A stretch of 48,387 bases of DNA. Origin: Thermoanaerobaculia bacterium (GTDB lineage Bacteria > Acidobacteriota > Thermoanaerobaculia > Gp7-AA8). Below are positions 39,001 through 42,000 of this stretch, one piece after another (position 1 is the first letter of the stretch; each line of letters opens with the position of its first letter). The stretch lies in assembly GCA_050745405.1 (NCBI GenBank), contig JBOGJQ010000162.1, positions 1 to 48,387 of the forward strand. Direction: 5' to 3'. Position numbers: made by a program.

Positions 39001-42000
39001 GGTCAACCGTTCGGTCTGCCTCGTGATCCGGTCCACGCGCATCGTCAGGAGCACGTTGACCCCGACGAGGGCGATGAGCGCGGCGAGGACGACGACGGCG
39101 GCCGCCGTCAGAGCCCTCCGCGACTCTACCGAAATCGGCATGCCCGAGGCCGCTGCAAAGAACGTACAGACCTCCCAGATCACACAGAGAGGGCCATCAC
39201 AGATTACACAGATGCCCCGTCGTACTCGCGGGGGGGCGGCACCATGAGCACCGGAATGCGGCTCGTGAGCAGGAGCTCCTGCGCGACGGCGCCGAGAAGG
39301 ATCCGCGGAAGGCGTGAGCGTCCCTGCGTGGCGATGCAGATCAGATTCGCCTCTTCGCGCTCGGCGATGCGCGCGATCGCGAACGCCGGCGACGCGTCAT
39401 CGACGAGCTCGATCCGCACGTCGACGCGGCGCTCGGTCAGGCTCCGGTCGACCCCCATCTCCCGGAGCCCGTCGATGATGCGTTGGCGTTCGGCGGCGTT
39501 CGGTTCGGGCTGCTCGAGGACGTGCACGATCGTGACGCGGCCGTCCGGCGGGACGAGGTTGAGCGCCCAGGCGGCCGCCGCGTTGCCCGCGGGGGAGAGG
39601 TCGGTTGCGGCGACCAGGCGCTGGAGTCGCGGAACGGGACGCCGTGCGACGATCTCGATCTGCGGCGCGCACGCGACCGTCACCGTCGCGGAACGCATCA
39701 CCGAGCGCGCGACCGACGCTTCCCACGTCCGCCATTCCCGGGTCGGATGATGGCCGACGACGACGAGGTCGGCGTTTCGCTCGTCGGCGAGCCGCACGAG
39801 AGCATCCGACGGCTTCGTGACGGGGGAGACGATCGCGATCTCTGCGCCGCCGATGCGCGCAGCCGCCGCGTCCAGCTCCCGCTGGATCAGCGGCTCGACA
39901 CTCGGGTGCGTCGCGTCGAGCAGGAGCGGGCCTTCGATGCCGAGGCGGTGGAAGATCTCGGGCGGCCACGCGACGTGCGCGATCGTGAAGCGGCAGTCGC
40001 CGTACGCGCGGAGCGCCGCGGCCCACGCGATCGCCTGATCCGACACGGCGGACAGGTCGCTCGCGATGACGACTTCGAGACGCCGCCGCCCCGAAACCCA
40101 CTCCGCCGCGGGAAAGCCGGACCGCACGACGAGAACGGGAATCGCCGTCTGCGATGCGACCCGATCCGCGGTCGTGCCCAGCAGCCACCGACTCACGCGT
40201 CGGCTCGTCGCCGTCACGACGATGAGGCGCGCGCCCGCCGCCTCGGCCACCTGCGGAATGACTTCCCCCGCGAGTCCCCGCTCGATCCGGACGCGGACCT
40301 CTCCGTTCAGCGCCTTCGTCCGCGCGTCGAGCTCCGCGCGCGCTGCCTTCTCGTCCGCCGCGTCCCGTTCCTCGAATCCCGGAACGTGCTCGGGAAGAAC
40401 GTGCAGGAGCACGAGCGGCTCTCCCGCTTTCTCTGCCAGCGTCGCAGCGATGCCCGTGCTTTCATCCGACAAGGCCGAGAAGTCCGTTCCACAGAGAATC
40501 GCCACTGGTCACCTCGTTCCTTCATCCCGAGGCGGCTGCAAAGAGCGTACAGGGCGTCAGGAGCGCCAGTCGCCGGCGGCCTCCGGCTGATACTCGATCG
40601 CCTCGATGCGGTAATGGCGAAGTCCCCCCGGGACCGCCCACTCGATGACGTCGCCGACCGAATAGCCGAGGAGCGCCGTCCCGAGCGGAGCGAGGATCGA
40701 CACTTTTCCGGCGTCGGCGTCCGCGGCGCCGGGAAAGACGACCGTCACGACGCGCGAGGCGCCGGCGTCCGTGTCGGTGAGGCGGAGGCGCGTGTTCATC
40801 GTGATGACGCCGGGCGGCACCTCCTGCGATGGGACGATCCGCGCGCGCTCGATCTCGTCGAGCAGGTCCTGGATCGTGCCGCGGTCGAGCGCATCGGCCT
40901 CGTACGCGTCGACGAGAGCCAGCAGACGCTTGCGGTCGAACTCCGAGATGGTGATGGTCTTCGTCATGGAAAGTCTCCTTCTGGCGAGACGGTCTCGTCT
41001 CGCTCCGCGGTTGGTGCAATTGAGTTGGAGTTGTGAAAAGGCGCGTCGGGCGATCGACGGATCGCGAACGCGCTCAGCCCCGCATGAGGCGGGTACGGTG
41101 ACCAGTGCAGGCAGGCCGGCGAGAGAACTTCATCGTCATGATCGAAGTAGGCAACGCCGATGCGTGAGAGAAAAGTCCTCCACAGAGCTTCGCAGAGAGA
41201 GAAGTCACCCCCCCACTCCTGAGTGAGCTCGCTGGCAACCACGAGCAGTAGAGTGTTTCGTTCGGAAGGGGAAACCGAGCCGCAGATTACGCAGCTTAAC
41301 GCAGATTTATTTGGTGAAACGGTCGCTTTCGCGCACGAGCCGGCGAGCGTTCTTACAATGGAATGCGCCGTGCTGGACGTTCGGGATCCCGACACCTATG
41401 CGGTCATTGGAGCCGCGATGGCTGTTCATCGTGAGCTGGGCCACGGCTTTCTCGAAGCCGTTTATCAGGAGGCCCTGGAGAGGGAGCTCGAGGAACGCGC
41501 CATACCATTCGAGCAGCAGGTGCTCTTCAACGTGCAGTACAGAGGCGTTCCCCTCAGACACGTCTATCGCGCCGATCTGGTCTGCTTTGGGTGCCTGCTG
41601 GTCGAGATCAAGGCCTCACTCTTCTTGACGGTCGTGGAAGAGGCGCAGGTAATCAACTATCTTAAGGCGTCAGGACTCAAAAAGGGGCTGCTTCTGAATT
41701 TCGGGCGCCTCAGTCTCGAGCACCGTCGCCTCGTCTTTAATCTGCGTTAATCTGCGTAATCTGCGGCTCCCGTTTCCTCTTTGCGTGTCACTGTAAGGGA
41801 GAAAATGACTCCAATGATGGAGGAGGCCTGGATGGCGGATCGTGATTTGAGCGAGGGGATCGCAGCGGAGGAGCTGCGCGAGGGGGAGATGCTCGCGGGA
41901 AAGGTCGGCGAGGAGGACGTTCTTCTCGCGCGGAGCGGCGGGAAGGTCTACGCCGTCGGCGCGACGTGCACGCACTACTCGGCGCCTCTGGTCGATGGGA

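Follow-up and report, generated by a model that had tools for sequence, protein, structure and literature searches.

What relation a small gene bears to the two nearly perfect inverted repeats that enclose it is the question raised by a locus in Thermoanaerobaculia bacterium (Acidobacteriota; assembly GCA_050745405.1, 3.9 Mb in 563 contigs, 67.6% guanine plus cytosine (GC)). The window analyzed here is the forward strand of contig JBOGJQ010000162.1, positions 1-48,387, a stretch of 48,387 nucleotides (nt), and all bare coordinates refer to it; labels such as C285 denote contigs of the source genome, the window contig being C162. Within the window, a gene for a 130-amino-acid GxxExxY protein lies between two arms of tandem short units, and gene and arms together are called the cassette. 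A first-pass annotation had taken the cassette for a small mobile unit with a degenerate end copy 2 kb away. The analysis presented here identifies it as the gene-bearing member of a dispersed foldback family resembling repetitive extragenic palindromes (REPs) and REPINs. By analogy with the REPIN-RAYT and NTS-Ssn systems, the chances are about even that gene and repeats would form a repeat-nuclease partnership, here built on another nuclease fold.

Anatomy of the cassette

The arms are 31-nt inverted repeats (41277-41307 and 41739-41769) in which 30 of 31 bases are complementary (97%), with 431 nt between them. Their inverted-repeat score is 28, and the best of 100 shuffles of the right flank reached 11. 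The first-pass annotation had described these repeats as 28 bp long and built from units of about 9-10 nt; they are real and longer than it had described. Each arm contains three tandem 9-10-nt units, a tandem period of 10 nt is detected in the right arm at 41737-41765, and with the conserved outer flank included the arm-family model pairs over 41267-41777. Three further points of the annotation were borne out. No gene other than the GxxExxY gene lies between the two arms, the last codons of this gene, AAT CTG CGT TAA (N-L-R-stop), are right-arm sequence, and the GC content of the cassette (54-58%) is lower than that of its flanks (70-73%). Gene and arms form one unit.

A dispersed foldback family in the genome

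Profile models built from the arms were run on the contigs of the genome and identified 172 arms, 91 of a subfamily A and 81 of a subfamily B, which correspond to about 90 foldback elements. Sixty pairs of arms are convergent (30 A/A, 30 B/B and no mixed pair), with loops of 0-81 nt in 56 of them, as a rule 15-60 nt, and a usual loop of about 18 nt. The subfamily A consensus, with CGCAGAT units, is ggRgaaccgaGC-CGCAGATTACGCAGATTRACGCAGA-loop-TCTGCGTYAATCTGCGTAATCTGCG-GCtcggttcycc, and subfamily B carries CACAGAT units and an outer CCACAGA..CACAGAG module, CCACAGAttnCACAGAG. The arms of the cassette fit the A consensus, which makes the cassette an A element whose loop measures 431 nt. The GxxExxY gene is single-copy in the genome, and one of the 60 paired hairpins holds it. 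Letter 2 is the sole difference between the A and B units, and judging from the units one protein could therefore plausibly serve both subfamilies.

The short elements have a common loop of their own, about 18 nt long and TTAAGAAAGGCAAAACCAA-like, and are therefore copies of a short master. The inner ends of the cassette resemble the ends of this short loop over 5-6 nt only, a weak likeness. Many unpaired arms are located at contig ends, which indicates that the repeat breaks the assembly; a public run contig likewise terminates at 41294, within the left arm of the cassette. Including the cassette there are four A pairs with long loops, and the other three hold an IS3-family insertion sequence (IS), a 99-codon frame, and 152 nt without an open reading frame (ORF). 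The 99-codon frame lies at C431:1481-1883, where two A arms surround 320 nt; it is GC-rich and encodes 93 amino acids from its first ATG, and the product is hydrophobic and has no Pfam match. This frame may represent another type of cargo; alternatively, it may be a host gene trapped where two half elements flank it.

The IS3-family element (C285:6444-7683) encodes an OrfA with HTH_Tnp_1 and an OrfB with HTH_21 and rve domains, and further ends of it lie at C153:106, C169:4966, C171:5370, C315:103 and C472:102. Each of its seven detectable ends adjoins an A or B element, and six of these ends lie within loops; a complete copy sits inside an A loop with a 3-bp ACA duplication. Insertion sequences that target REPs are on record, and the loop-targeting element found here resembles IS1397 in the REPs of E. 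coli (PMC1525189).

Variation within the family is seen both outside and inside the arms. Just outside A arms there is often a G-run module, which reads CCGGGCGGGCGGG on the right side and as the complement on the left side (for example C150:974-1111, C78:2808-2874 and C97:5338-5396); it is present in some copies and not in others, and the element boundary is therefore ragged. In a B element at C457:853-982 the right arm has expanded into a run of TCTGTGAAA repeats with some nine TCTGTG units, as against three in the left arm; the number of units changes by slippage.

Framing and co-occurrence across the phylum

Among 301 genomes of the phylum, 109 carry 1-10 GxxExxY genes. A flanking inverted repeat with a score of at least 15 was found at 80 of 130 usable loci and at none of 130 shuffled controls. 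The arms at these loci comprise 2-4 tandem 9-10-nt units with the core form C-R-C-N-R-A-K, and the letters vary by locus (CACAGAG, CACGGAG, CGCCGAG, CACCAAG, CACCGAT, CGCGAAT and others). Three-unit arrays fitting the generic pattern were counted in the same 301 genomes, a reversed-pattern control giving near zero. The median count is 64 for the 109 gene-bearing genomes and 2 for the other 192 (Mann-Whitney p = 1.6e-29). The gene is present in 89% of the genomes with at least 50 arrays as compared to 19% of the rest, and array count correlates with GxxExxY copy number (Spearman coefficient 0.68). Within the taxonomic class to which the genome of the window belongs the separation is full, with 12-151 arrays in five gene-bearing genomes and at most 8 in 22 genomes without the gene.

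Since the repeats are dispersed and GxxExxY loci elsewhere are framed in the same way, the cassette is the gene-bearing member of a REP/REPIN-like foldback family and not a private cassette with a decayed copy. The earlier linking of repeats to the gene thus divides into two parts. Within this genome the repeats occur independently of the gene, as the 172 arms and the single gene-holding hairpin attest, and this part falls away; the expectation that other GxxExxY genes are flanked by inverted repeats stands, as seen in other genomes. The label "non-autonomous" given to the cassette is unsupported, because it is the only member of the family that bears a gene.

Unit type follows the protein

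A maximum-likelihood tree was built from the 80 framed proteins of the phylum. Seven unit classes placed on this tree require 14 changes, compared to 32-41 in shuffles, and the distinction between T-ending and G-ending units requires 2 changes, compared to at least 14. The search pattern fixes four of the seven core letters, and the conservation of letters was therefore tested on the free letters only. In pairs of proteins with 45-60% amino acid identity, fourfold-degenerate sites agree at about 0.30, which is roughly chance. In the same pairs letter 7 of the unit agrees in 89% (about 60% expected), and letter 2 (56%), letter 4 (39%) and the spacers (38-47%) are near random.

The pattern extends to other phyla. 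A query with a single protein gave 80 closest homologues, of which 75 loci with 55-69% protein identity were usable, spanning at least 15 phyla that include Acidobacteriota, Pseudomonadota, Desulfobacterota, Verrucomicrobiota, Lentisphaerota, Planctomycetota, Chloroflexota, Nitrospirota and Gemmatimonadota. Of the 46 loci whose inverted repeat scores at least 15, 44 have CRCAGAT arms, and at least two CRCAGAT units stand beside the gene at 65 of the 75 loci, compared to 7 of 150 control windows. Some of these arms, for example in Desulfobacteraceae and Verrucomicrobiota assemblies, are nearly letter-identical to those of the window, with proteins that differ by about 40%. The spacers between the units vary (TA, GA, TT, TG, GGA). 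Dispersed three-unit arrays number 13-158 in five of eight such genomes, the culturable Oligosphaera ethanolica DSM 24202 having 158, and the reversed-pattern control gave 0. Across phyla the arms are more conserved than the protein. The presence of the same arms across phyla at 55-69% protein identity shows that the whole unit has spread horizontally.

These results bear directly on the idea that the hairpins are REP-type repeats of the ordinary kind, which serve the host, for instance in termination or mRNA stability, and whose loops are insertion hot spots in which the gene landed by chance or through loop targeting. The repeats are indeed everywhere and mostly gene-less, their loops are demonstrably insertion targets, as the ends of the IS3-family element show, and an IS preference for REPs is a known behavior (PMC1525189). 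Chance, however, leaves unexplained the framing of 80 of 130 loci in the phylum and of 65 of 75 in other phyla, as well as the way in which unit type follows protein clade; moreover, nothing inside the arms delimits the gene as an inserted element in its own right. This explanation is contradicted by the framing and tree results and is largely refuted, so that we regard it as highly improbable.

The GxxExxY protein

The only family matches of the protein are TIGR04256, at 134.8 bits (cut-off 35) over profile positions 3-116 of 116, and PF13366, at 126.9 bits (cut-off 22). In an alignment of 35 sequences, E33 of the GxxExxY motif, D73, E83, K85 and Y101 do not vary, and the conservation of Q97 is 90% or more. 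The catalytic D-ExK residues are intact, and Y101 together with Q97 makes up a QxxxY motif. An AlphaFold2 model with a mean predicted local distance difference test (pLDDT) score of 90.5 has the alpha-beta-beta-beta-alpha-beta core elements in the expected order. Using Foldseek, the nearest structures were Cas4 SSO0001 (E = 3e-4), lambda exonuclease, RecE, MGME1 and AdnAB, with modest template modeling (TM) scores of 0.45-0.55; a sequence search against PDB chains gave no match. From family profiles and model, the protein is predicted to be a minimal RecB/Cas4-like PD-(D/E)XK nuclease, in agreement with the PD-(D/E)XK-like assignment of the first-pass annotation. Members of the RecB/Cas4 branch act on single strands or DNA ends. 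Neither a Y1 HUH transposase family of the IS200/IS605-like kind nor a GIY-YIG nuclease is among the family or fold matches of the gene. The PF13366/TIGR04256 family is very large, roughly a third of the genomes surveyed here containing members of it, and its function was listed as "Unknown" in the catalogue that named it (PMC3424549).

Comparison with known repeat-nuclease systems

Ssn (PMC11893778) and RAYT (PMC3733652) are published cases of a small nuclease gene flanked by copies of a hairpin repeat that is itself dispersed in the genome. The REPIN-RAYT systems (PMC3116915, PMC2817692, PMC3333891, PMC3733652) share with the present family the short palindromic repeats, which number from dozens to hundreds in a genome, the single-copy gene between inverted copies, the genome-by-genome co-occurrence of repeat and gene, and repeat loops that are hit by insertion sequences. 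RAYT, however, is a Y1 HUH transposase of the IS200/IS605 kind, whereas the gene in the window encodes a predicted 130-amino-acid RecB/Cas4-like PD-(D/E)XK nuclease. The repeats differ too, REPs being GC-rich hairpins of 20-40 bp with a GTAG or CGTC tag, whereas the arms described here are three-unit arrays whose consensus lacks such a tag.

The second likeness is to the NTS/SRM-Ssn system of Chenal et al. (2025, PMC11893778), in which a small stand-alone nuclease gene is flanked by a dispersed hairpin repeat, repeat and gene co-occur strongly across phyla, and repeat variants track protein variants. Ssn is a GIY-YIG nuclease that was found experimentally to cut single-stranded DNA at its repeat and that modulates natural transformation in Neisseria, whereas the GxxExxY protein is a predicted nuclease. 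NTS is a single hairpin motif, whereas the repeats here are arrays of tandem units.

The searchable literature mentions GxxExxY, PDDEXK_3 or PF13366 only in passing or as an "Unknown" catalogue entry, and it contains no paper that links a PD-(D/E)XK nuclease with extragenic palindromes or describes an association of PF13366 with repeats. The remark of the first-pass annotation that it was aware of no described mobility mechanism agrees with what was found, and no published description of a repeat-nuclease association for PF13366 was found either.

By analogy with these systems, a mechanism may be proposed. The nuclease would recognize the phased units both in the arms around its gene and in the gene-less hairpins, of which there are about 90, with letters 5-7 of the unit setting the specificity and letters 2 and 4 and the spacers being free. 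Recognition would probably take place on a single-stranded or extruded palindrome, which the nuclease would then nick or cut. Cutting, followed by repair or copying, would maintain the repeat family together with the gene nested in it.

If the protein reads its own flanking units, each gene of this family comes with a written-out candidate target, and, as happened with Ssn, small nucleases specific for a sequence or a structure could be obtained from the family. Such a partnership would also explain a class of dispersed hairpins whose copies fragment assemblies, provide neighboring genes with stop codons and false start codons, and attract insertion sequences. A wider proposal is that GxxExxY cassettes and gene-less hairpins constitute, across phyla, a distinct class of very small mobile or self-propagating elements, in which a RecB/Cas4-like nuclease of 125-130 amino acids would be the sole element-encoded protein, would read phased 7-nt cores with letters 5-7 as a clade-specific address, and would drive foldback copying through its cuts. 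The large PF13366 family would then gain a function, and its sequence-specific nucleases, with targets legible in their own flanks, would join RAYT and Ssn as a third repeat-nuclease system. This proposal is doubtful on the present data.

Evidence that weighs against a partnership

Several results weigh against the repeat-nuclease partnership. In the phylum, 12 genomes have at least 40 arrays and no gene, and 13 genomes have the gene and at most 5 arrays fitting the pattern. If the foldbacks were spread by something else, gene-bearing copies would equally be confined to the genomes that carry the family. In this assembly subfamily B is without a gene of its own. The linked inheritance of gene and arms accounts for part of the tree signal.

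Signs of movement were sought in the flanks and in related assemblies. No consistent target-site duplication was found in the flanks of 49 complete elements, and the elements have no sharp ends, conservation fading gradually outside the arms. No empty site was found in relatives, in the conspecific assembly or in run contigs. Exact-protein look-ups yielded a single conspecific contig, which contains the cassette, and two run contigs that end at the arms. Relatives have about 68% DNA identity in the reductase gene next to the cassette and no rnk gene beside it, and synteny is lost. The conspecific assembly L055 (GCA_975254775.1) has the cassette in the same place, with 99.8% identity over 5.7 kb. 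Its sole difference within the cassette is C to A at 41295, the one mismatch of the left arm, and it yields a perfect 31-nt inverted repeat; this could be a real polymorphism or the collapse of a repeat in an assembly consensus. Arms are as alike between elements as within them (within versus between, 0.862 versus 0.867 for A and 0.832 versus 0.838 for B), and G.T and A.C arm mismatches show no strand bias. Nothing in the arm likeness and mismatch results therefore indicates hairpin-templated correction or selection for pairing in each copy.

The same observations lend no support to the mobile cassette proposed by the first-pass annotation, as neither a target-site duplication nor an empty site was found and the conspecific assembly is filled at the same place. 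An autonomous selfish element, a stronger form of that proposal in which gene and arms transpose or home as a unit, the 130-amino-acid nuclease is the sole mobility enzyme and the gene-less hairpins are non-autonomous derivatives, would account for terminal inverted repeats around a single gene of lower GC content than its flanks, and for many gene-less copies with near-consensus arms. The same-arm homologues in at least 15 phyla would also require the horizontal spread of a whole unit. The resemblance is to insertion sequences and miniature inverted-repeat transposable elements (MITEs), which likewise have terminal inverted repeats, many short gene-less copies and few gene-bearing ones. Unlike those, the present elements lack a known type of transposase, target-site duplications and defined ends, and their short copies, having a loop of their own, are not independent internal deletions. 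No pair of filled and empty sites was found, the gene, like vertically kept RAYTs, is present once per genome here, and a lone nuclease has no obvious strand-transfer or joining activity. Such an element is improbable as the source of the cassette. An integron cassette array is likewise a poor fit, since the arms flank the gene symmetrically and about 90 copies have no gene.

Four-helix-bundle genes and a possible RNA-level frame

The genome contains five four-helix-bundle (TIGR02436) genes, at C455:14270-14587, C103:3034-3351, C302:1463-1771, C503:1453-1773 and C341:27185-27388. Proteins of the TIGR02436 family are those encoded by intervening sequences of 23S ribosomal RNA (rRNA). Four of the five genes are bracketed by inverted tandem arrays with 7- or 9-nt units of their own (GCGTCTTGG, TCGTTGG, TAGTAGC and GAACGCA), and the fifth, on C341, has GGACGTATA units upstream only. 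Arrays of these units are dispersed in the genome, numbering 29, 70, 47, 76 and 7 respectively, and many are short hairpins. As these genes are framed alike, the architecture is not specific to the nuclease, a further point against the partnership. Either the proteins of both families recognize the arrays around their genes, or such frames are the product of a shared external mechanism. The shared design hints at a wider rule that ties small genes to inverted tandem arrays.

Two repeats within the window belong with these arrays. At 45822-45912 lies a gene-less hairpin of about five GTCCTATAC-like 9-nt units, a 7-nt loop and about five GGACGTATA-like units; its unit is the one found upstream of the C341 gene, and because of the hairpin the long ORF 43310-45919 on the minus strand begins with an odd, repetitive N-terminal extension (MLIVLFVLLVLYVLFV...). 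At 25712-25748 about four CAACGAA units form a solo array, and the same unit flanks the four-helix-bundle gene on C103.

The likeness to intervening sequences leads to another explanation, in which the GxxExxY gene is passive cargo in an RNA-level foldback frame: RNase III would cut the paired stem and release the insert harmlessly, and the foldbacks would be spread by something other than the GxxExxY protein. The best comparison is the 23S rRNA intervening sequence of Coxiella burnetii, a proposed selfish element in which a small ORF (S23p) lies within a long inverted-repeat stem cut by RNase III (PMC4990558). In the predicted RNA fold of 41262-41784 the arms pair over their full length (-236.9 kcal/mol, z = -5.6). 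The cassette lies between an rnk-like gene and the reductase gene, which is on the same strand 33-45 nt downstream, and the cassette is therefore probably co-transcribed with the reductase gene; no sigma-70-like promoter was found in 40900-41900. The four-helix-bundle genes, framed alike by unrelated units, fit such a frame as well. In contrast to the Coxiella case, however, the cassette stands between protein-coding genes and not in rRNA, and its ORF encodes a PF13366 nuclease and not a four-helix bundle. An RNase III stem needs no set sequence, yet within protein clades letters 5-7 are conserved across phyla while letters 2 and 4 and the spacers drift, and phased tandem units would have no role in it. 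Arm mismatches compatible with wobble pairing have no strand bias, and an Rfam scan of 38900-42100 at E up to 1 gave no match. On balance an RNA-level frame with passive cargo is unlikely.

The half element near the cassette and other features

The coordinates of the cassette and of the related features upstream of it are collected in Table 1.

Table 1. Features of the foldback family in the window
Feature	Coordinates	Strand	Composition or remark
Left arm, subfamily-A foldback element	41267..41307	.	Outer flank GGGGAAACCGAGC, then CGCAGAT-TA-CGCAGCT-TAA-CGCAGAT-T
Inner left segment, arm to start codon	41308..41357	+	Replaces first part of usual ~18-nt loop
GxxExxY / PDDEXK_3 gene, 130 aa	41358..41750	+	TIGR04256 and PF13366 matches
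Right arm, same A element	41739..41777	.	AATCTGCG-TTA-ATCTGCG-TA-ATCTGCG, then outer flank GCTCCCGTTTCC
Solo half element, subfamily B (right arm read on minus strand)	39171..39214	-	Outer module and two CACAGAT units
Loose match resembling the B outer module	41178..41202	.	Only such match without a nearby arm besides chance-like GC-rich CCGCGGA.. sequences

The solo end upstream of the cassette had been read in the first-pass annotation as a decayed copy of the cassette end. It is repeat DNA, matching the B arm model at 39176-39213 with 19.1 bits, and in this respect the reading stands; it is a half element of subfamily B, and the derivation from the cassette end does not hold. Its described effects on the neighboring genes were confirmed. 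The half element supplies the last two codons (S-V) and the TAA stop (39204-39206) of the USP gene, and a GTG within it, at 39183, gives the histidine kinase ORF an extended start. This GTG start is probably spurious, and the ATG at 39142 is more likely the kinase start. The module that had been placed upstream of the left arm fared less well, being a lone loose match to the B module with no B arm adjoining it. Nothing resembling it is found upstream of other A elements, and it is probably not part of the element.

A 27-nt direct repeat with 93% identity, CCCGAGGC[CG]GCTGCAAAGA[AG]CGTACAG, occurs at 39143-39169 and 40526-40552. The first copy lies between the kinase ATG, which it directly precedes on the minus strand, and the B arm; the second lies 20 nt upstream of the USP start in a non-coding spacer. 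A sigma-54 promoter was considered by eye and rejected, there being no GG at the right spacing. The repeat may be a regulatory site shared by the two genes.

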